A stretch of 62,127 nt of DNA, the filler included. It is 6 parts of 6 records of this genome, joined end to end, with 100 filler letters (N's around TTAATTAATTAA, not from the genome) between each part and the next. Parts side by side here need not be neighbours in the genome. Positions count along the whole stretch, not along the records: positions 52,019 to 62,127 come from SRR31156797_19073; 5 more parts are not named here. One strand, 5' to 3'. The position numbers and the translations under genes were made by a program. The first letter of the stretch is position 1. Every line of letters begins with the position of its first letter. The notes beneath the pieces were generated by a model. The model was given only the letters and a program-made list of their open reading frames with translations. It was not told the origin of the DNA and searched no databases. Below, in pieces: positions 52,019-62,127 of the stretch.

Positions 52019-52019
52019 C

Positions 52020-52889
52020 GGTCCCCGGAAATCCGGAACCCAAAAACCCGTAAGTGCACTCTCCTTATCGGTGCTTGAGCCTGAAGAAGTGCCGCGGCTG
52101 AAATCCTTTGCGGCAAACCGACTTCCCCAAAGACTGGTGGAAGACCTTAGGGGGCGTCTCACCTTAAAGCCCACCCTCTCTTTTACAAAGGCCCGATTGG
52201 AAAACAGGCCCTTTCCCATCACCTTCAAAAACGCTCAGATGCAGATGCGGCTCAGCCGATCCCTTCCTTCCATGGACTATTTCCAGACGGATATCATTGG
52301 AGGAACCCTGCTGGGGAGACTGCGCATTCTTGAGCACCATGACCATTACCGCCTTCACATGGACGGGGCATTTTCGGGCCTGGACGCGAACCGGCTGATT
52401 CAGAGGGGTAATGCCGGGAGTCCGGGGGATAAAACAACCGGGGATACCCGGATTTCAGGGCGCATGTGGTTTCAAGTTCCCATCACCGCCCATGCCGGGA
52501 CCGTAATGGGCAACCTGGACGCGGTATTTCGGTTGACCCACATCGGTGCCCGAACCCTGGAGCGGCTGCTCTACGCCATGGACCCCCATGAAAACAATGA
52601 GAGCATGGTCCGGCAGCGGGCCCTGTTGAAAAGAGGAACCCCCCGCTGGATTGAGGTGGTCATCAAGAACGGCAGCCTCTCTTTAACGGGGGAGGTGACC
52701 GTTGCCGGATCCAATATCCGTCTGCCGGCCGTCAAACGCCTGAACATGGCCTCGCTTCCCATTCGACGACAACTTCAAACAGTGGTGGACCGCCTGGTTC
52801 CCCTTCTAAAAGGGTTGAAGATCCTTTCCGCGGACACGCTTCGTGTGGAAAAGGGCGGCGCCATCCATTTTACGGAGGGCGGAAAATGA
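52020..52889 (+). CDS. C-terminal part of a large AsmA/YdbH-like beta-rich envelope protein (5' truncated)
   Basis: Frame is open from the contig start; amphipathic beta-strands (IIGGTLLGRL, FSGLDAN, ISGRM). ATGA overlap with the DUF1318 gene. Family is inferred from composition and synteny. Confidence 0.55.
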   Translation, partial: GPRKSGTQKPVSALSLSVLEPEEVPRLKSFAANRLPQRLVEDLRGRLTLKPTLSFTKARLENRPFPITFKNAQMQMRLSRSLPSMDYFQTDIIGGTLLGRLRILEHHDHYRLHMDGAFSGLDANRLIQRGNAGSPGDKTTGDTRISGRMWFQVPITAHAGTVMGNLDAVFRLTHIGARTLERLLYAMDPHENNESMVRQRALLKRGTPRWIEVVIKNGSLSLTGEVTVAGSNIRLPAVKRLNMASLPIRRQLQTVVDRLVPLLKGLKILSADTLRVEKGGAIHFTEGGK

Positions 52890-53485
52890 AGAAATTCTTT
52901 CTTTTAAGGGGTCTGTTTCCGGTTGTGATCATATCCATCATAGGGGGCTGTACACTGGCCAAGGTGGATGTGAATGTGGTCAGCCAACGGACGGCGCTGG
53001 AAAACCAGGTCCTGGGTTCCTATAACGCCCTTTCAGACGATGTCCTCCTGGTGGCCTCCGTCAGGGGCGTTGACCCCTCGGGGAAAATTAAGACGCCCCC
53101 TCGAAAAAGCCGTGAATACCAAAACGCCGTTACCGCCATGGAGACCCTGGCGTTTCACGGGGACGACGTGGATGCCTTTAAACGGTTGGGCTGGGTGGGT
53201 GAAAACAACTTTGGGTTGCTGACAACTTTTCCCATGAACCGGGAAAAAGCCCCCGATGATCTTGGGGCCTTTGCCGCACGCTTTCCCCGGGATGAGTTCC
53301 TTTCGGTGGTGCAACAGGTGAACCGGGCCCGGGAAACGGTCATGATGCGGGTGGTGGAAACCAATGCGGATTTCACGGAAAAGGACCTGCCCCGAATCAA
53401 AAGGGTGTTTGCGAAACTCAACCGTGAAAAAGCCCTTCCCGGTGAAAAATTGCAGAAGGAGGACGGCTCATGGGTCACGCGGTAG
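52886..53485 (+). CDS. DUF1318 (YdbL-like) lipoprotein
   Basis: Lipobox IIGGC; G.VGENN.GLL, VN..R..., ALPGEKLQ..DGSW as in DUF1318; GGAGGG RBS. Confidence 0.8.
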   Translation: MKKFFLLRGLFPVVIISIIGGCTLAKVDVNVVSQRTALENQVLGSYNALSDDVLLVASVRGVDPSGKIKTPPRKSREYQNAVTAMETLAFHGDDVDAFKRLGWVGENNFGLLTTFPMNREKAPDDLGAFAARFPRDEFLSVVQQVNRARETVMMRVVETNADFTEKDLPRIKRVFAKLNREKALPGEKLQKEDGSWVTR

Positions 53486-56400
53486 CCGGTGGAGGGAAGG
53501 TGCCGGGACGGGCATTCATTGCGGTTCTCTTTCCGGCGGTTTTTGCAATGGTCATTTCATGTGCCGGTCCAAACCCTTCAAAGCCGGCCAAGGATGTCAC
53601 CACGGTGGTGGATTCGGCGGCCATTGGCGAAAAAGATCGTCAACCGCCGCGGCTTCTGCCCGTAAACAGGCCCGTGCAGATCAGTTTTGAGTCGGATCCC
53701 GTTCTCTATGCCGCCATGTCGGGGGATGGCAAAACCTTTGCCCATGTTTTGGAAAATGAGGGAAGATCATCCCTGTGGCTCACTTTGAAGGATCCCCTAG
53801 CCGGGGGACTCCCTCAAAAACGGTTGGAAGGCATGGGCAGAATCTCTGCGCCGACGCTGAACCGGGATGGGGGAGTCCTGGCTTTCACGGCAACGGATTA
53901 TGATGCCAAGGGAGATATCTATGCCCTTTCACGGGATGCTTCAAACCCGTCCCCCCGGCGGCTCACCGGAAGGGATTCGGCCGATGGTGCGCCCACACTA
54001 TCGCCTGACGGGAAACGGATTTATTTTCAGCGGTTGCTCCCCGGCGAAGTGTTGCCGCAACTGGCTGTCATGGATCTGTCCGCCCCCGCGGACAACCGGG
54101 ATATGGAAACCCTGCGGGAAGGGGCCTTTCCCGCCGTCTCCCCAAATGGGGAAAGGCTGGCATTTGTATCTTTCACAGAAGATTCGGGTGGGGACATTTG
54201 GGTGCTCGACCTTGAAAGCGGAGCGGCAAAACCGGTCACCAGCGGTCCTGCCCGGGATCTTTATCCCACCTGGTCCGTGAATGGAAAATGGATCTATTTT
54301 TCCCGGTTTAACGAGGATACCGATGGGGACGGCATCATCAGCGTCATTGATAACGCCCTTATCTGCCGGGCTGCCCCGGAAGAGAAAAATTTAACGGTTT
54401 ATCCTTTGACATCGGGGACTTTTTCCGCCTATCAGCCCATGACAACACCGTCGCGGATCTTTTTCCTTTCCAACATGAACGGCACCGGGAACATCTGGGC
54501 CCTCCCTTTGGGCGGAGAGATTCCTTTGAAGGAAAACGTGCGGGAGCAGATGGCCGTGGCCCGGCTCCTGGCCTCACGCCTCCCCCAAGAAGATTCCCTG
54601 GCAGTGCTCGCCTTTTACAAGGTGCTGGAAAACTTTGGAAAAGATGAGAAGGCCAGCGCTGAAGCCGCCCATGAAATCGGAAAGTTGTACCAGCGCATGG
54701 GGCGGAGGGGCCTTGCCATTCAAGCCTATAGAAGAGTAATTCAGGATTTTAAGGATTCCCATCCCGAAAAGGCGCTGGCAGCCATACGATTGACCACACT
54801 TGAGACGGAAAACGACTGGGAAGCGGCGCCCACGGATTTTAAACGAAAAGAGATCCTTCACCAGGCCCTTATTGGCATTCAAAGGATTTCGAACGCTGAA
54901 AACGGACCATCACCCGGTATGAATCCTTTGGATTCAACGCGGATAAAGGCGAGGGCATGGATCGCCCAGTCACGGTTGCTGGGGGATCTGGGTCAGGATG
55001 CCGCATCCTTGGAAAAAGCCATTTCGCTTCTGGACCGTGTGGTAAAAATGCCGGATCTTGCGCCTGGGTTGAAGGCGGAAGCCCTGTTTCAAAAGGCACT
55101 TCAAAGCCGACGCATGGGACGGGCTTCGGCCGTAACGCCCATCTATCTTTCCATCATCACCGGGTACCCCGGCACCCCATGGGCCGATCGTTCCGTTCGG
55201 CGGATCATTGATATGCAACTGTCCGATTCCACCCATGAAAAGGATGAAAATCGGATGCAAGCCCTGGCCCGGCTGGCCGAAACCTATCGGAAAACCGCCC
55301 CCGGACTCTCCATGGGGGCGCTTAACCGAATGGGGGATACGGCGTTTCAGAAAGGAGACTGGCCCCGGGCCAAACGGTGGTACAGGGAAGTTCTGACCCG
55401 GTATTATGACCCGGGTGAATCTTTTCCGAAACATGAACCGCCCCCCGTACAACTGGCGGCGGCCAGGCTGGCGCTGGCTGAAATCCTGTATAGGGAAGAG
55501 CTTTTCCGTCAGGCCCTGGATCTTTATGAAAAGGAAATGGCCTACAGGCCCTATGAGGACCGGTTTTACGGCCTGGCCCGGGCCGCCTATGTTCAAAAAT
55601 CCCTTGCCGCGGCCAATTTCCTGTTCGGTTTGGGAGAGATTCCAGGGGCCCAAAAAATCTACAATGATCTCATCCGGGAAGACCCCCACCTGGTTCAAGC
55701 CCATCGCGGGTACATCAAATGCGCCGCCCCCATGAAACAGATGGAGCCTGTCCTGGCCCGCTATGAAGCGCAACTGGCAAAAGACCCGGATAATCCCGTG
55801 TACCTTTATGCCACGGGTCTCTGCCTTACCTACCTGGAAGGGAAAAAGTCACTGGATAAGGCGCGCGGCCTCATTGAATCAGCCATCCGGAAACAGGGCC
55901 GGAACCCGTACTTTCACCAGACCCTGGGATACATTTTCGAGGTGTCGGAAACCGTTTATGGTGAACCTGAAGGGCTCGAAAAAGCTCTTTTGAGTTACCG
56001 GAAGGCCTCTTTCCTGAACGATCCGGGAGTGGATCCGCAAAACAGCGCCGACCTGGCCCTCAACCTGGGAAACATCCATTTCCTCCTGGGCCAATACGGC
56101 AAGGCCCTCCAGGAGTACCTGAAAAGGCTGGAATCAAATCTCCCCTTTGACCACGAGGATACGGAAATTCTTTTTTACCGTCGCCTGGGGGGCGCCGCCT
56201 TTCAGGTGGATGACCCCGCCGTATCCATTGGCGCTTACACCCGTGCCCTTGAACTCATCTCAAAACGGATCGATCCCGGGCGGGCATCGGAACTGATGGG
56301 AAAGCTCAACACCTATATTTTCGACCGGATACTGACGCCGGCATTGAAGCGGAGCAAGAATGCCGAAAATGTTCAACTGCCGGTTAATCAACAGCGTGAT

Positions 56401-59400
56401 ATCCATAGGGCCCTCTTCAGTGCCACGGAAAAACCTTTTGGCCCTCCTCCGGATCCGCGATGGGAACATTACAAAGAAGCCATGACTTCCATCATGGCCC
56501 GGGAAGAAAAGCTCATTGGGGATATTACCCCATTGATGATGGAGAAAAAAAATGAAACCGAAAAGACACTCTCTTTCATGCTCATGCGGGCCCGGGATGC
56601 CCTCCGGTTTCCCGACCGCATGATAGGGCTCAAGGCCGAGATGCTGGACCGGCTGGGACTGGCGTACCAGGAGGATCGGAAATGGGATCAAGGGGCCCAT
56701 GCATTTGAAGAGGCTTTTCAATTAAACCTTGCCTTGGGAAAGACGCAAAATCTGGCGGCCAACCGACGATCCGTTGCCTACAATACCTATATGGCGGCCG
56801 GGGAACGCGGTGGCGGGGAGAAGGAGCGTCTCCTCAGGGAAGCCCTCAAACAGTTTCAGGAATTGCAGGGGTTGCTGGATCAATACGGGGTGGTGGATCC
56901 TCAGGAGAAAAAGGCTGGGGGCAAAAGGCTTTCAGGCGGGAGCGGCGGCGCCATGCTGAATGTTTCCCTGGATCTGGCCTTTGATAAAACCGCCGGCTCA
57001 CAGGCCGTTTACGGGTTCGACCGGAAGCAGGAAAATCGGTTGGCACAGGCCTTTATTTCCCGGATCGAAACTGAACTGGGCGTTCTGGCGAAAGCCCGGG
57101 CCGCCATTGAGCGGCAGCTTCTGCCCTATGAAAAGAGAAAGACGGTCAGTGATAAAAACCGCTACGGGGTTTCTCTTCTTTTACACCGGGACGGACAGCT
57201 CCGCTTTGCCCTGAGGCAGCCTGAGAAGGCATTTCAATCATTTCAGAGGTCCGCGGAGCTGGCGCTCAAACTCAAAAATCCGGTCAGCGCCGCCATGAAT
57301 GTGGTGAACATGGCCTGGGCACTTTGCCGCATCCCTTCCCATGATCCCGATTATTCGACCTTGAAAAGCCGGCTTTCAGTCCTTGACCGAAAAACCACAA
57401 CACTGTTGAAACGTTCAGAGGAAGTGCTGGATCCGTTGGTGCTGCCGGATTACCACAATAATATGGGCGTTCTGATGTTGGATGATGGGGAACAATCGGT
57501 GCCCTTATCCCCTGAAAGTGCCGCCCGGAACCTGGCCCCTTTGAAGCGGGCGGGGGTCCATTTCAGCAGAGGTCTGGCGGCAATGAAAGGCGTTGAAATG
57601 GCCGGGGGCCCCATGACCCGAAAGGGACTGGCCCTGGAAGCAGCCCTTCAATTGAACCTGGCCCATGTGGCCCTGGCGCTTCATGAGCCGGCCGGCGCCA
57701 AACGTCATGGGGGAAAAGCCCTGGAAATTGCTAAAAAAGGGTTGCTGCCCCAATATGAATGGCGTGCACGGTTACTCCTGGGAGATCTAAAGGGGGCGCT
57801 CAAAACCCTGTGGGCGGTTCCCCTTATGGGTGCGGGCTGCGGGCCCGGAGAGATCCGCACCGCCTTTGCCGGAATGGTCTCTCATCTGATCCGGAAAGAC
57901 GATGCCGAAGGGGCCCTCAATCTCCTTGAAAAACTTTCCGAAATGGAGCGCTTTCAACGAATGGCGCCCATGGTGGCGGCACGGGTCTCCCTTCCCGAAA
58001 GGGCTCTCCTGCTCAAAATCTTTCCAAGGATCATGACCCTTTTCCGCCTCAAAAGGGAATTGAACGGGGCCCAAAAGGTTCAAAAGCGCCACCTGACGGA
58101 ACGCATGGCCCAGGAGCAGGCCCTCCTGGATCAAGCTCTGGGGAAAAGTCCCAAATCATCAAATGTTGGAAGCACCGTGGGCCTGCCCGCGCAGCTGACC
58201 CGTTCAGGGGCCCTGCAGGAGCAGTTGCTGTTTCTTCTGAGTCTCTCCTTTGAAATGGATCGCGTGGCGGATCTGGTGGCGGCGGAAGCCTCCGAAAATG
58301 ACGGCAGCCCCCAAAGAGTACGTCACCGTGAACTTCTGGCCATGTACGGGCGGACATTGAAAGGGATCAAAAAGCTGGCTGCCCGGGAAGGGTCCCCCGG
58401 GGTGGCGGCCCTGTTCGCTCCGTATCCCGTGGAGGCCATGGATCTCATGGAGAACCTGCCCCATAACGGTCGAGCCGTACGGTTTTTTGAAAAGGACCCC
58501 CGGGGAAAGGGTTGGACCGCCTTTGTGGTGACCCCGGATGATATTTTTGTGAAGCCGTTTTCCCCGGATCATGATTTTTCCCGGGGCAAGGGGGATAAAA
58601 ACATCCTCATTTACGAAAACCCCTGGGCCCTCCCCTTTGAAACGGTTTCTCCCGTGGCCCTGAACGCCACCCATCTGGTACGATCGGTGGAGAACCGTAA
58701 ACCCTTCAAAAGAAAGATTATAGAGATCGCCGGTGCATATGATCTCCCGGAAGATTTTAATGTAACCGCACTGCCGGCTTCAGCCGGAAAAGACGAAATA
58801 TCAGATGTTTTGCCGGGAGCCCAGACGCTTTTGCTGGGCGGTCCCGTCTACACCGCCAACACGGTTCCCACAAGACCGAAAGAGGTTCCCGCCTATGGGC
58901 CGGCCATGGGGCTGGACCGGGGGCGGATCCTCCCCCTTTTCCCCCTTTTCCATGAACTTTCCCATGCGTCCCTGGTCATGGCGCCTCAGGCAGCCACCGA
59001 AGAGACTCCCCTGCTCGGGCACCTCTTTTCCCTCATGGGGGTTCCCACCGTGGTACTGCCGCAAAATCCGGTTCGTCATTCCCCGGTGGTAACGCTTTTT
59101 TTTGACGCCTATGGCAAAAACCCGGTCCAGGAAGCGCTCCGGACGGCTGTTCAAAACAAGGGGGAGCGCTGGGTTTCCCTGGGGTACTGGGGGATGACGG
59201 AAAAAGAGGCCCTCGATCTGGCAAACCGGCGTTTCAAGTCATATGTGAAGGAGGGCATGGCATCTTTTAAGAAAAAGGAACCGGTTTATGCCCTCATTTC
59301 TTTTGAAAATGGACTTATGGTGGCCCGGCAAAGGGAGAAACTCTCGCGCTATGAACCGCAGCTTCTGATCTATGCCCGTGAAAGCGCCTATGCCGCCGGC

Positions 59401-62076
59401 CGTTATGAAACCGCTGCCCGGTATGGGGAAGATCTCGTCAAATTCTGGACCCGGAAGAGACCCGACTCCAGGGACCAGGCGGAAGCCCTGATGAAACTGG
59501 GCCTCATACGTGCCCGCATGGAGCAGTATGATCGGGCCATTCCCGCCCTGGAAGAGGGGGCTGAGATCATGGCCAACCTGGAATTGGAGGAGTTGCAGGT
59601 GGCAGCCCTGAACGACCTGGGGGTGGTACTGGAAAACGCCACCGATTACGACCGGGCGCTTACGCAGTTTCAAACTGCCGCGGAGCTCAGCGAAAGCCTG
59701 GACAAAAAGGAGCGGCTGGCCCGCCAGCATATGCGCATGGGACGGATTTACGACCTCAGGATGAGCCGGTATGCCAAAGCCAAAATCCATTACCTGAAAG
59801 CCTTTGAGCTTTATGAAACCCTCCATAAAACGGAAGATATGGCGCAAGCCCTGCTGGACTCAGGCCGTTGCGACCGGCTCCTCGGGAATTTCAAGGGTGC
59901 CGAAGACCAATATGGAAAAGCACTGAAGCTTCTTAAAGAGGGCGGAGAAGGTGTGCCGGCCCATAATAAGGTCATGGCGGGCATCCTCATGGAACAGGCC
60001 AACAACCACTGGTTTCAGGCCCGTTACCGGGATGCCTTCAAAGGGCGGCTGGAAGTTTACAAAATGGCGCTTAAAAACAACTGGACCCTTGAGCAGGTGA
60101 ACAGCCTCAATACGGCGGGCCTCATCTGGTGGACCCTGGGAGATCACCCCGCGGCCCTCCGTGAGTTGGAAAAAGCGCTCGTTCTGGCCAGAACCCTTCA
60201 TGCCAGGAGGGATGAAACGGCCACCACCTTCAACAACATGGGGCTGGTCTATGGGGATATGGGCCATTACGAAAAGGCCCTTGAAGCACTGGATCAGGCC
60301 CTTGCCATCGACCGGAAAATCAACTCCAAATGGGCCATTGCCTATGACCTCAAAAACCTGGGCCTCACACGCCTCCGCATGAATGATGCGGAAAAAGCCG
60401 TTCCTCTCTTTGAGGAGGCGCTTGCGCTTGCCAAGAGCATCGGGAACCGTATCAACCAGGCCAAGATTCTGGTGGGATACGGCGATGCCCTGGTGGAACT
60501 GAAACGGCTTGAGAATGCGAAAACCCGTTTTCATGAGGCCCTTGATCTTTCCCGTCAAATGGCCCTCCGTGAGGTGGAGTGGCGGGCCCTATTCGGTTTG
60601 GCACAGCTCCGGCTGAAAGGGGGAAACAAGGAAAAAGCCCGAACCCTTCTGGAAGAAGCCGTTAAAGTGATTGAAGGGATGCGGGCCGGGATCAAACTGG
60701 ATCAGTTGAAGGACGGTTTCATTGCCAACAAAATGGCCGTGTATGAAACCCTGGTGAGCCTGTTGGTGGACATGGGACGCGATTCGGACGCTTTTTACGT
60801 GGCGGAACGCTCCAGGGCCAGGAACCTCATTGATCTTCTGGGCAACCAGCGCCTTTCCCTTCACGGCGCCGTAAACCAGAAACTCTACCACGGGGAAAAG
60901 GCGCTTAAGAACCGGATCGCCGAATATGAAACCCTGTTGGCCCAGGCAACCGATCCTGATGAACAAGCGGTTTACGGGCAGGCCCTGGATCAAGCCCGGG
61001 ACCGGCATCGGGACCTGATGCTGGAAATCCAGCTCAAGAACCCGGAATTGGCTTCCATCCTCTCCGTGGATCCCCTGACCTTGCGCCAGGTGCAGGAACT
61101 CCTTGAACCGGGAACAGCCATCCTGGCCTACTATCTGGTGCCGGATGAGATCCTTTGCTGGTTCATTACCCGGGACCAGGTGGAACTTTTCAAAACACCC
61201 CTGGGCCGCGAGACCCTGGCACGGTCGGTTCTGGATTACCGCCGGACCCTTCAGAACCTGGAGCCCGCCGAAAGAGAGTCCAAAGAACTCCATGACCAGC
61301 TCCTCCTTCCTTTGAAAGAGCGGCTGAAAGGTGTTAAGACCGTGGGCATTGTCCCCCACCATATCCTTCACCATCTCTCTTTCGCCACCCTTTTTGACGG
61401 TAAAGAGTATATGGTGGACCAGGTTCCCCTCTTTTCCCTGCCCAGCGCCAGTGTGCTCCGTCACACCGCGCAAAACCGGGATAAGAGCAACAGGGTTCTG
61501 GCCGTGGGCAACCCGGATCTCCAAAATCAGGCCCTGGCACTCCCCTTTACGGAAAAAGAGGTGGCCTCCATCGGTTGGAGATTTCCGGATGTGACCGTGC
61601 TCACGGGGGATAAGGCAACCGAAGGGTGGGTGGTCCGCAACATATCCGATTACGGCATCATTCACCTGGCGTCCCATGGGGAATTTGATCCCGTGAACCC
61701 GCTTTTTTCCTCGGTCAAACTGGCCCGGGGCGATCATGACGACGGTGATCTCCGGGCCTCCGAGGTATTCGGTCTCGACATTCGCGCGGATCTCGTGATG
61801 TTGAGCGCCTGCCAGACGGGGTTAGGGAAAATCACCGGGGGCGACGATGTGATCGGTATGAACCGGGCCTTTCTCTACGCGGGAACCAATGCCATCATGA
61901 GCAGCCTGTGGCGGGTGAGCGATATTTCAACGGCCCTTCTGGTGAAACAGTTTTACCGGGAGTACCAAAACCGGTCCAAGGCCCAAAGTCTGGGCCGGGC
62001 CATGCGCCATGTGAAAAACCGTTACCCCCACCCCGGTTATTGGGGCGCCTTTGTGCTGGTGGGGGACTACCGCTGA
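53470..62076 (+). CDS. Giant lipoprotein: TolB/PD40 propeller - TPR arrays - pseudo-CHAT - TPR - CHAT (caspase-like) protease
   Basis: Lipobox-like MVISC; PD40 repeats (PTLSPDGKRIYF, PAVSPNGERLAF, PTWSVNGKWIYF); many TPRs; IHLASHG and LSACQTG dyad, SLWRV, YWGAF. Confidence 0.9.
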   Translation: MGHAVAGGGKVPGRAFIAVLFPAVFAMVISCAGPNPSKPAKDVTTVVDSAAIGEKDRQPPRLLPVNRPVQISFESDPVLYAAMSGDGKTFAHVLENEGRSSLWLTLKDPLAGGLPQKRLEGMGRISAPTLNRDGGVLAFTATDYDAKGDIYALSRDASNPSPRRLTGRDSADGAPTLSPDGKRIYFQRLLPGEVLPQLAVMDLSAPADNRDMETLREGAFPAVSPNGERLAFVSFTEDSGGDIWVLDLESGAAKPVTSGPARDLYPTWSVNGKWIYFSRFNEDTDGDGIISVIDNALICRAAPEEKNLTVYPLTSGTFSAYQPMTTPSRIFFLSNMNGTGNIWALPLGGEIPLKENVREQMAVARLLASRLPQEDSLAVLAFYKVLENFGKDEKASAEAAHEIGKLYQRMGRRGLAIQAYRRVIQDFKDSHPEKALAAIRLTTLETENDWEAAPTDFKRKEILHQALIGIQRISNAENGPSPGMNPLDSTRIKARAWIAQSRLLGDLGQDAASLEKAISLLDRVVKMPDLAPGLKAEALFQKALQSRRMGRASAVTPIYLSIITGYPGTPWADRSVRRIIDMQLSDSTHEKDENRMQALARLAETYRKTAPGLSMGALNRMGDTAFQKGDWPRAKRWYREVLTRYYDPGESFPKHEPPPVQLAAARLALAEILYREELFRQALDLYEKEMAYRPYEDRFYGLARAAYVQKSLAAANFLFGLGEIPGAQKIYNDLIREDPHLVQAHRGYIKCAAPMKQMEPVLARYEAQLAKDPDNPVYLYATGLCLTYLEGKKSLDKARGLIESAIRKQGRNPYFHQTLGYIFEVSETVYGEPEGLEKALLSYRKASFLNDPGVDPQNSADLALNLGNIHFLLGQYGKALQEYLKRLESNLPFDHEDTEILFYRRLGGAAFQVDDPAVSIGAYTRALELISKRIDPGRASELMGKLNTYIFDRILTPALKRSKNAENVQLPVNQQRDIHRALFSATEKPFGPPPDPRWEHYKEAMTSIMAREEKLIGDITPLMMEKKNETEKTLSFMLMRARDALRFPDRMIGLKAEMLDRLGLAYQEDRKWDQGAHAFEEAFQLNLALGKTQNLAANRRSVAYNTYMAAGERGGGEKERLLREALKQFQELQGLLDQYGVVDPQEKKAGGKRLSGGSGGAMLNVSLDLAFDKTAGSQAVYGFDRKQENRLAQAFISRIETELGVLAKARAAIERQLLPYEKRKTVSDKNRYGVSLLLHRDGQLRFALRQPEKAFQSFQRSAELALKLKNPVSAAMNVVNMAWALCRIPSHDPDYSTLKSRLSVLDRKTTTLLKRSEEVLDPLVLPDYHNNMGVLMLDDGEQSVPLSPESAARNLAPLKRAGVHFSRGLAAMKGVEMAGGPMTRKGLALEAALQLNLAHVALALHEPAGAKRHGGKALEIAKKGLLPQYEWRARLLLGDLKGALKTLWAVPLMGAGCGPGEIRTAFAGMVSHLIRKDDAEGALNLLEKLSEMERFQRMAPMVAARVSLPERALLLKIFPRIMTLFRLKRELNGAQKVQKRHLTERMAQEQALLDQALGKSPKSSNVGSTVGLPAQLTRSGALQEQLLFLLSLSFEMDRVADLVAAEASENDGSPQRVRHRELLAMYGRTLKGIKKLAAREGSPGVAALFAPYPVEAMDLMENLPHNGRAVRFFEKDPRGKGWTAFVVTPDDIFVKPFSPDHDFSRGKGDKNILIYENPWALPFETVSPVALNATHLVRSVENRKPFKRKIIEIAGAYDLPEDFNVTALPASAGKDEISDVLPGAQTLLLGGPVYTANTVPTRPKEVPAYGPAMGLDRGRILPLFPLFHELSHASLVMAPQAATEETPLLGHLFSLMGVPTVVLPQNPVRHSPVVTLFFDAYGKNPVQEALRTAVQNKGERWVSLGYWGMTEKEALDLANRRFKSYVKEGMASFKKKEPVYALISFENGLMVARQREKLSRYEPQLLIYARESAYAAGRYETAARYGEDLVKFWTRKRPDSRDQAEALMKLGLIRARMEQYDRAIPALEEGAEIMANLELEELQVAALNDLGVVLENATDYDRALTQFQTAAELSESLDKKERLARQHMRMGRIYDLRMSRYAKAKIHYLKAFELYETLHKTEDMAQALLDSGRCDRLLGNFKGAEDQYGKALKLLKEGGEGVPAHNKVMAGILMEQANNHWFQARYRDAFKGRLEVYKMALKNNWTLEQVNSLNTAGLIWWTLGDHPAALRELEKALVLARTLHARRDETATTFNNMGLVYGDMGHYEKALEALDQALAIDRKINSKWAIAYDLKNLGLTRLRMNDAEKAVPLFEEALALAKSIGNRINQAKILVGYGDALVELKRLENAKTRFHEALDLSRQMALREVEWRALFGLAQLRLKGGNKEKARTLLEEAVKVIEGMRAGIKLDQLKDGFIANKMAVYETLVSLLVDMGRDSDAFYVAERSRARNLIDLLGNQRLSLHGAVNQKLYHGEKALKNRIAEYETLLAQATDPDEQAVYGQALDQARDRHRDLMLEIQLKNPELASILSVDPLTLRQVQELLEPGTAILAYYLVPDEILCWFITRDQVELFKTPLGRETLARSVLDYRRTLQNLEPAERESKELHDQLLLPLKERLKGVKTVGIVPHHILHHLSFATLFDGKEYMVDQVPLFSLPSASVLRHTAQNRDKSNRVLAVGNPDLQNQALALPFTEKEVASIGWRFPDVTVLTGDKATEGWVVRNISDYGIIHLASHGEFDPVNPLFSSVKLARGDHDDGDLRASEVFGLDIRADLVMLSACQTGLGKITGGDDVIGMNRAFLYAGTNAIMSSLWRVSDISTALLVKQFYREYQNRSKAQSLGRAMRHVKNRYPHPGYWGAFVLVGDYR

Positions 62077-62100
62077 GATAATACGGATGGAGGTGACATC

Positions 62101-62127
62101 ATGAGAGGCTCTATTGCACCAGCCGTC
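62101..62127 (+). CDS. Start of next gene in the same operon (truncated)
   Basis: GGAGGTGA RBS then ATG AGA GGC TCT ATT GCA..., 24 nt after the CHAT gene stop. Confidence 0.6.

Follow-up and report, generated by a model that had tools for sequence, protein, structure and literature searches.

In Escherichia coli, YdbH, YnbE and YdbL make up an envelope bridge in which YnbE has a lipidated cysteine, an alternating hydrophobic strand and a C-terminal helix (PMC11126948; 10.64898/2026.03.16.712125); excess YdbL poisons this bridge, and YdbL is removed by the protease DegP (10.64898/2026.03.16.712125). In Myxococcus xanthus, the anti-sigma factor DdvA is a periplasmic TPR-CHAT protein (PMC11506125). 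Parts resembling both systems stand side by side in an operon at the end of the 62,127-nt stretch of DNA analysed here (the window): an AsmA-like gene, a DUF1318 lipoprotein gene and a gene for a giant exported protein ending in a CHAT protease domain, followed in relatives by genes for an SH3b protein and an M48 peptidase. Together these genes form a genuine envelope system, so far undescribed and strongly co-inherited, whose parts are of known kinds. The parts, their export signals and their joint inheritance are seen in sequence or in models. By analogy with the described systems, the operon may be an accessory trans-envelope lipid bridge under its own proteolytic control, a reading to which we give a probability of roughly 45%. 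It is favoured by gene linkage that holds from both directions, the retention of parts that have become dispersed, the YdbL fold of the lipoprotein, the beta-groove relatives of the AsmA-like protein (LPD-3, the Vps13 N-terminus and JlpA), the invariant catalytic dyad of the giant and the HExxH motif of the M48 peptidase.

Comparison with described systems

The likeness to the E. coli bridge lies in an AsmA-like gene followed by a lipoprotein that combines a YdbL fold with an alternating hydrophobic strand and a helix (PMC11126948; 10.64898/2026.03.16.712125). Here, however, the YnbE-like and YdbL parts occur in a single lipoprotein, as is common in the generic bridge operons of the phylum, the bridge protein, of ~1220 residues, was not matched to a YdbH-named family, and three protease-related genes are attached.

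DdvA resembles the giant in having a TPR-CHAT region with a His-Cys dyad outside the cytoplasm, and its periplasmic location (PMC11506125) runs counter to the statement, made in an earlier note on this DNA, that TPR-CHAT proteases such as Csx29 are cytoplasmic. DdvA has features of its own, namely a cytoplasmic zinc anti-sigma domain, a transmembrane helix and an adjacent extracytoplasmic function (ECF) sigma factor gene, whereas in the giant a short signal (cleavable or lipidated) leads straight into a propeller, a dead CHAT duplicate is present, a lipoprotein gene lies upstream and no sigma factor gene adjoins. A DdvA-type anti-sigma factor is ruled out by this N-terminus and by the upstream lipoprotein gene.

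With Csx29/Craspase and separase (CHAT family, clan CD) the giant shares a TPR scaffold followed by a caspase-like domain, the catalytic region aligning weakly (E 0.07-0.11); the Asp in its W-x-V-x-D motif is, by contrast, Ser in both Csx29 chains. An identification as Csx29 was rejected on the NF041237 score (43.7 bits against a cut-off of 300), the presence of signal peptides and the lack of a conserved cas neighbour. The M48 protein has the HExxH domain of the envelope proteases BepA and LoiP (97.6 and 70.7 bits, both below cut-off) but not the TPR tail of BepA, and constitutes a distinct subfamily tied to the giant. An SH3b gene directly before an M48 gene is also found beside CHASE2 cyclases, and a PD40 propeller adjoining an outer-membrane lipoprotein recalls TolB-Pal; the giant differs from TolB in that the TolB model reaches 61 bits (cut-off 343), the propeller is the first tenth only and no TolQRA or Pal genes are nearby. 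As the earlier note had supposed, the system appears to be undescribed: the literature search, which left most subscription papers and all supplements outside its reach, found no description of the operon or of the giant family, and the accessible parts of 10.1101/2023.06.23.546230 and PMC8195603 held nothing relevant.

Gene layout

The window consists of several contigs joined by spacers of the form N44-TTAATTAATTAA-N44, and the operon is confined to the last of these, 52019-62127 (10.1 kb), which has a GC content of 0.56 against 0.33-0.38 for the others. Because this contig starts at 52019, no DNA upstream of that position is a true neighbour. A 28,401-bp public contig is identical over the whole 52019-62127 stretch (0 mismatches, 0 gaps), and may be the same DNA, not an independent occurrence. 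The features are:

52020..52889, + strand: AsmA-like / repeating-beta-groove protein (as predicted), 3' end, 289 codons; open frame cut at the 5' end, stop at 52889
52886..53485, + strand: DUF1318 lipoprotein, 199 residues, lipobox Cys22 at 52949-52951 (Pfam, fold search)
53470..62076, + strand: giant exported protein, 2868 residues, with signal, PD40/TolB-like propeller, TPR array, dead CHAT, TPR array and active CHAT (Pfam, profiles)
53470..53562, + strand: signal peptide of the giant with lipobox-like ISC end (Cys31), FAMVISC at 53542 (our own heuristic)
53653..54519, + strand: PD40/TolB-like beta-propeller, about residues 62-350 of the giant (PD40 E 1.1e-17)
54316..54342, + strand: DxDxDG-type (EF-hand-like) insert DTDGDGIIS in the propeller (motif)
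57742..59205, + strand: internal, catalytically dead CHAT, residues 1425-1912 of the giant (profile comparison, ESM Atlas)
60565..62073, + strand: active-type CHAT module, residues 2366-2868 of the giant, with His2736 at 61675, Cys2781 at 61810 and the W-x-V-x-D Asp2818 at 61921
62101..62127, + strand: fourth open reading frame (ORF), first 9 codons, GGAGG before the ATG at 62101, cut by the window end

The AsmA-like and lipoprotein genes overlap by ATGA, and the lipoprotein and giant genes by 16 nt. ORF reading and Pfam recovered the three overlapping genes, the start of a fourth and all of the motifs that the earlier note had named, including HLASHG at 61663 and SACQTG at 61804. Scores in a promoter and terminator scan were below shuffled-sequence level.

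The gene following the giant differs among the closest relatives (L001, L003, L004, L006, L117, L119, L121), so that in this clade the fourth ORF, judged by its neighbourhoods, probably does not belong to the system. Six close relatives have their SH3-M48 pair at a separate locus. With a variable next gene and an SH3-M48 pair at another site in the closest relatives, the idea that the giant processes the product of the downstream gene has no support here. The remainder of the window (1-52018) is made up of five other contigs (GC 0.33-0.38) unrelated to the operon, in which apparent genes running across spacers are artefacts.

A conserved five-gene set

The order recurring in relatives is AsmA-like protein (~1220 residues), lipoprotein, giant, SH3b protein (~175 residues) and M48 peptidase (~290 residues); the earlier note had the first three genes right, but missed the SH3b and M48 partners. 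Linkage was followed from both ends. A scan with the lipoprotein, one genome per species, gave 173 relatives, of which the best 80 were examined, and a reverse scan of metagenomes with the family-specific part of the giant gave 106, of which again the best 80 were examined; the fractions that follow count only loci long enough for testing. Around the lipoprotein, the AsmA-like gene adjoined in 73/76 loci, the giant adjoined in 74/76 and SH3 followed the giant in 40/57. Around the giant, the lipoprotein was upstream in 68/70 loci and the AsmA-like gene present in 63/66, with SH3 next in 34/49. The proposed gene linkage is thus conserved in both directions. SH3 and M48 are fused in 10 lipoprotein-selected and 4 giant-selected loci, and three distant forms (L197, L198, L203) have the identical five-gene order. 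The arrangement is not due to chance: a search scoring 8000 candidates gave 465 matches to the giant at E <= 1e-50, and dozens of genomes show the same gene order.

Parts that have separated are usually retained elsewhere. The AsmA-like ortholog lies on a different contig in G036 and G044. For 50 of the 80 loci the genome was searched for a strong M48 ortholog (E <= 1e-80), which was present in 45. No conserved sixth gene was seen in 20 extended regions. Four of the proteins evolve slowly and jointly, with median identities of 41-56% and distance correlations of 0.84-0.95 across 28 complete loci; read from sequence distances, this shows a shared history, not contact. Inter-protein mutual information (90 matched rows) was too shallow for use, with effective numbers of 38-52 and no shuffle control. 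Complex prediction with the C-terminal 251 residues of the AsmA-like protein, residues 62-632 of the giant and the partner lipoprotein scored 0.00 with the alignments unused, and is no evidence either way. Two genomes (G220, G259) have, directly after the lipoprotein and in place of the giant, a gene for a conserved protein of 341-349 residues without a Pfam match (L209:2140-3165, L210:2043-3092).

The AsmA-like protein and the lipoprotein

Alone, the 52020-52889 fragment has no Pfam match. Its last 251 residues are 71% identical to a full-length ortholog (L001), and full-length orthologs run to ~1200-1290 residues with a hydrophobic N-terminal helix, a region that falls outside the window for the protein itself. 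N-terminal AsmA, DUF748 or YhdP Pfam matches were obtained for 2/6 near and 3/3 distant orthologs; no YdbH-named family was listed for the fragment or for any of the 9 orthologs. In the ESM Atlas, the L001 ortholog groups with AsmA-type clusters, and an AlphaFold model of its residues 24-1221 (56 sequences; predicted local distance difference test 84, predicted template modelling score 0.62) shows a long beta sheet behind the N-terminal helix. The top Foldseek match to the model was the bridge-like lipid transfer protein LPD-3 (E 1.8e-5, template modelling (TM) score 0.14). VIA-align placed model residues 9-226 on a Vps13 N-terminal fragment (Z 8.7, root-mean-square deviation (rmsd) 5.0 Å, 168 aligned), in keeping with a chorein-N-like domain, and the C-terminal half on JlpA (Z 9.8). 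On ortholog Pfam matches, ESM Atlas clusters, the modelled beta sheet and groove-type fold matches, the upstream protein is, as proposed earlier, AsmA-like; on these models it is filed here as an AsmA-like or repeating-beta-groove protein, and not as YdbH proper. Distant orthologs also give weak GspN and TamB matches, below cut-offs and within the shared N-terminal region only, and two of them (L295:5056-8253, L197:2390-6745) show a weak similarity to LIC_11026 of NCBIfam, at 31-41 bits against a cut-off of 325. A Leptospira counterpart may lie in the LIC_11026 region; these matches are far below cut-off, no named Leptospira match was obtained and no papers were found.

The second gene encodes a DUF1318 lipoprotein (PF07027, 32.4 bits against a cut-off of 27). 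All of 74 members match this family at E <= 1, and the lipobox Cys is invariant in 74/74 distant members. Mature residues 72-178 superpose on E. coli YdbL (28oj) with Z 12.3 and rmsd 1.6 Å over 86/87 residues, the next match having Z 4.2, which bears out the DUF1318 assignment of the earlier note; YdbL was found by fold search only, a PDB sequence search with the lipoprotein profile giving nothing under E 0.04. The front of the lipoprotein comprises an alternating-valine strand (V-x-V-x-V nearly invariant; residues 1-11 of low confidence) and a helix at 16-37, in agreement with what is reported for YnbE (PMC11126948; 10.64898/2026.03.16.712125). Behind AsmA-like genes of the same phylum a fused lipoprotein is also found (L217, L223, L225, L229, L299-L301), with a split form in L236. 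From this pattern and the gene context, not from a profile match, we infer that the lipoprotein is a fusion in which a YdbL domain follows a strand and helix of YnbE type. The generic bridge operons of the phylum mostly have such a fused YnbE-like and YdbL lipoprotein, L236 representing a split three-gene form.

The giant protease

On the giant, Pfam found CHAT at 2603-2866 (E 3.7e-60), PD40 in three stretches and many TPR families. His2736, Cys2781 and Asp2818 are invariant in 138/138 full-length homologs, and the His, Cys and Asp are kept in 24/24 further giants found with a distant member; conservation is highest over the last 170 residues. The C-terminal CHAT would therefore be of the active type, by its invariant His-Cys dyad, as the earlier note had it. 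What that note had missed is a second, internal CHAT. Profile comparison of residues 1425-1912 with the C-terminal module gave a probability of 95% (E 3e-8, 268 columns; three controls 0.1-7%), the ten best ESM Atlas matches with a family assignment were all CHAT (10/10), and in distant giants the active-CHAT profile matches the internal module with up to 76 bits. The His-Gly and Ser-Ala-Cys motifs are absent from the aligned places in 138/138, and by its sequence the giant resembles two TPR-CHAT units in tandem, of which the first is dead. More distant propeller-TPR-CHAT giants of 2500-2950 residues with an intact dyad also exist (P0402-P0416).

An extracytoplasmic location, proposed in the earlier note, is consistent with the hydrophobic signal core in 132/138 giants (by our own heuristic, not SignalP). 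Two further features that it had emphasized are present here, but are not general. The lipobox-like motif, by the same heuristic, occurs in 42/138 giants, including 12/14 of those above 60% identity and 11/84 of those below 45%; a lipid anchor was accordingly rejected as a family feature, 96/138 giants having no lipobox, and is typical of the close clade only. The EF-hand-like insert is found in 48/138 and was rejected as a core feature, being optional.

The SH3b and M48 proteins

Both proteins have signal-like N-termini, with a twin-arginine-like motif in 12/61 M48 proteins. HExxH is present in 61/61 separate M48 proteins and 7/9 SH3-M48 fusions. The SH3 linker has [DE]xxR in 54/69 SH3 proteins and 9/9 fusions, the first Arg being missing from distant members L253 and L254. 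It is the second Arg, that of R-G-L, which is invariant, and R-G-L also occurs in SH3 proteins beside CHASE2 cyclases; Arg-specific cleavage of the linker is for these reasons retained only for the protease cascade considered below. The W-x-V-x-D Asp of the giant may be the counterpart of separase's Arg pocket. In the accessible part of the SAVED-CHAT preprint no cleavage site was found.

Among 16 generic SH3-M48 regions, a CHASE2 adenylate cyclase adjoins the pair in 12, a FadL/TodX-like barrel in 8 and a CHAT gene in none (0/16), these labels having been checked by Pfam on 3 (CHASE2) and 2 (FadL-like) examples. Because generic pairs thus adjoin CHASE2 cyclases without CHAT in these other regions, the SH3b-M48 pair is, on gene neighbourhoods, a portable periplasmic module, with the giant occupying the usual place of the cyclase. 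The recurring module of CHASE2 adenylate cyclase, SH3b and M48 in the same phylum (L279, L281-L283, L286-L288, L290-L294), often with the FadL/TodX-like barrel, yielded no paper in the literature search. Humidesulfovibrio-type loci (L020:19184-20446, L077:18900-20333, L093, L094) have a divergent SH3-M48 fusion by the giant and a standard SH3 and M48 pair elsewhere.

Distribution among genomes

The giant was found in at least 9 of 301 genomes (the centre included) from the phylum of G004, with at most 8 candidates scored per genome. In 8 of the 301 the lipoprotein subfamily is matched over its full length, and each of these 8 has the giant; none of the 71 with only generic DUF1318 does. The SH3 subfamily is present in 6 genomes, all 6 with the giant, and G220, G259 and G293 are divergent giant carriers without a strong SH3 match. 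In the phylum of G036 (Ca. Magnetocorallium), presumably Nitrospirota, the subfamily lipoprotein occurs in 2/151 genomes, one of which (G144) has all five genes in order. By these counts the system is accessory (~3% of sampled genomes) and patchy, but tightly co-inherited. Among sulfate- and iron-reducing bacteria, only a small minority carry it. By name, the lipoprotein is closest to NaphS2 and Desulfatiglandales records (83-85% identity), and the contig probably derives from this group; named isolates among the matches include Geomonas, Humidesulfovibrio idahonensis and Desulfonema magnum. Three of five carrier genomes also hold the generic two-gene bridge operon, and for this reason the five-gene operon would be a specialised paralog.

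A proposed proteolytically controlled bridge and its alternatives

How might these parts work together? On the model of E. coli, the AsmA-like protein would be anchored in the inner membrane, with its beta groove carrying lipid, and the lipoprotein would cap the groove at the outer membrane, its N-terminal strand extending the groove and its YdbL domain controlling assembly. By analogy with separase, Csx29 and DdvA, the giant would be a resting protease in the periplasm; binding of partners or of a trigger, and gating of the active CHAT, might fall to its propeller, TPR arrays and dead CHAT. The giant may in turn be regulated by the SH3b-M48 pair, or may cut it. We infer the physical coupling of protease and bridge. 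The output would most likely be inside the envelope, because the five proteins are all exported, with no evident cytoplasmic effector among them: the bridge may be assembled, dismantled or switched, with consequences for lipid flow or outer-membrane remodelling, under a condition met only by some lineages.

A more detailed version, which we regard as somewhat unlikely in its specifics, is that a periplasmic protease cascade gates a bacterial membrane contact site. The giant, as a separase-like enzyme with dead and live CHAT domains in tandem, would dock where the bridge ends at the outer membrane; once triggered, it would cut after an Arg of the conserved SH3b D-x-x-R-S-x-R linker, and the M48 peptidase, thus freed or activated, would open or dismantle the bridge.

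Several observations weigh against a proteolytically controlled bridge. The Pfam AsmA-type cut-off is passed by only 1/6 near orthologs. The fold matches are weak and generic (TM ~0.14), porins (Z <= 12.5) and an ApoB100 fragment (Z 16.7) scoring higher, and three fold searches, in libraries that may hold none, returned no TamB, YhdP or YdbH chain. Of 63 Pfam families matched by the 74 lipoproteins, the 25 that were listed do not include YnbE. The loci are kin, with a few duplicated between the two sets (L007 = L125), so the linkage counts overstate independence. Giant and lipoprotein lie on separate contigs in G220 and G259, two genomes in which no member of the SH3 subfamily was found either. 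Finally, a 310-kDa protease far exceeds the needs of quality control for a small bridge.

Of the alternatives, an envelope alarm or defence system survives best, though it is unlikely. The propeller and TPRs would sense an intruder or damage (phage entry, a predator, an injected toxin) in the periplasm, and a CHAT cascade acting through SH3-M48 and the bridge would remodel or kill the cell. The patchy range (at least 9/301 genomes) would suit this, the paired dead and live protease domains fit a gated switch, and it is in defence that the best-studied bacterial TPR-CHAT proteins act (Csx29; DdvA, PMC11506125). A Cas3-like HD gene, its motif recognized by eye, lies ~2 kb after the giant in two near-identical loci (L118:9352-11532, L119:18692-20872), and was not seen in other loci. 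Against this, PADLOC 2.0 returned only a generic TPR model on the five proteins and matched 5 of 65 flanking proteins (65 of 88 collected, near-duplicates having been dropped by hand), mostly by generic domains; the slow, joint evolution over 28 loci and the lack of an evident toxic effector also speak against it.

Another possibility, doubtful in our view, is an export conduit, in which the AsmA-like groove and lipoprotein would carry lipoproteins or proteins, perhaps including the giant, to the outer membrane or surface, the protease maturing surface proteins. There is a precedent in the AsmA-like GspN, which is reported to serve lipoprotein surface transport in Acinetobacter (PMC12802150), and the N-terminal GspN/TamB matches of distant orthologs and the lipidation of the giant in some clades (by the lipobox heuristic) point in the same direction. 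Those matches, however, are sub-threshold and limited to the shared N-terminal region, most giants (96/138) have no lipobox, and in the loci examined no conserved outer-membrane barrel, secretin or ATPase gene adjoins the operon.

An equally doubtful possibility is that a spare YdbH-type bridge and a set of periplasmic proteases are co-regulated modules with no physical contact, which share an operon through a common stress. Each operon junction is broken in some lineage, and in the phylum both bridges and SH3-M48 pairs commonly occur without a CHAT gene; yet the specific subfamilies co-occur almost perfectly even when unlinked, the genes often overlap, and the lipoprotein remains with the giant after the AsmA-like gene has left (L065, L076, L158, L161, L165). 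Contact-dependent attack on other cells with CHAT as the weapon, also raised in the earlier note, is very improbable: a large exported protease of patchy range might serve it, but the proteins are conserved, with no variable C-terminal tip (the last 170 residues being the most conserved), no immunity-like gene and no delivery genes nearby.

Implications

How AsmA-like bridges are switched or taken apart is the question that this operon addresses, and a bridge with a dedicated protease set would offer a direct test of regulated lipid transport between two membranes. The presence of both parts in one lipoprotein supports the interface between YnbE and YdbL that has been reported in E. coli, and L236, compared with the fused forms, is a natural fusion test. 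Exported CHAT proteases are almost unstudied (the trigger of DdvA is not known), and the giants provide a family with an intact dyad and a dead duplicate. Because the matches include Geomonas, Humidesulfovibrio idahonensis and Desulfonema magnum isolates, the system is experimentally testable. Should the proposed protease cascade at a membrane contact site prove right, it would represent a novel type of envelope control system, in which caspase-like signalling takes place entirely outside the cytoplasm.

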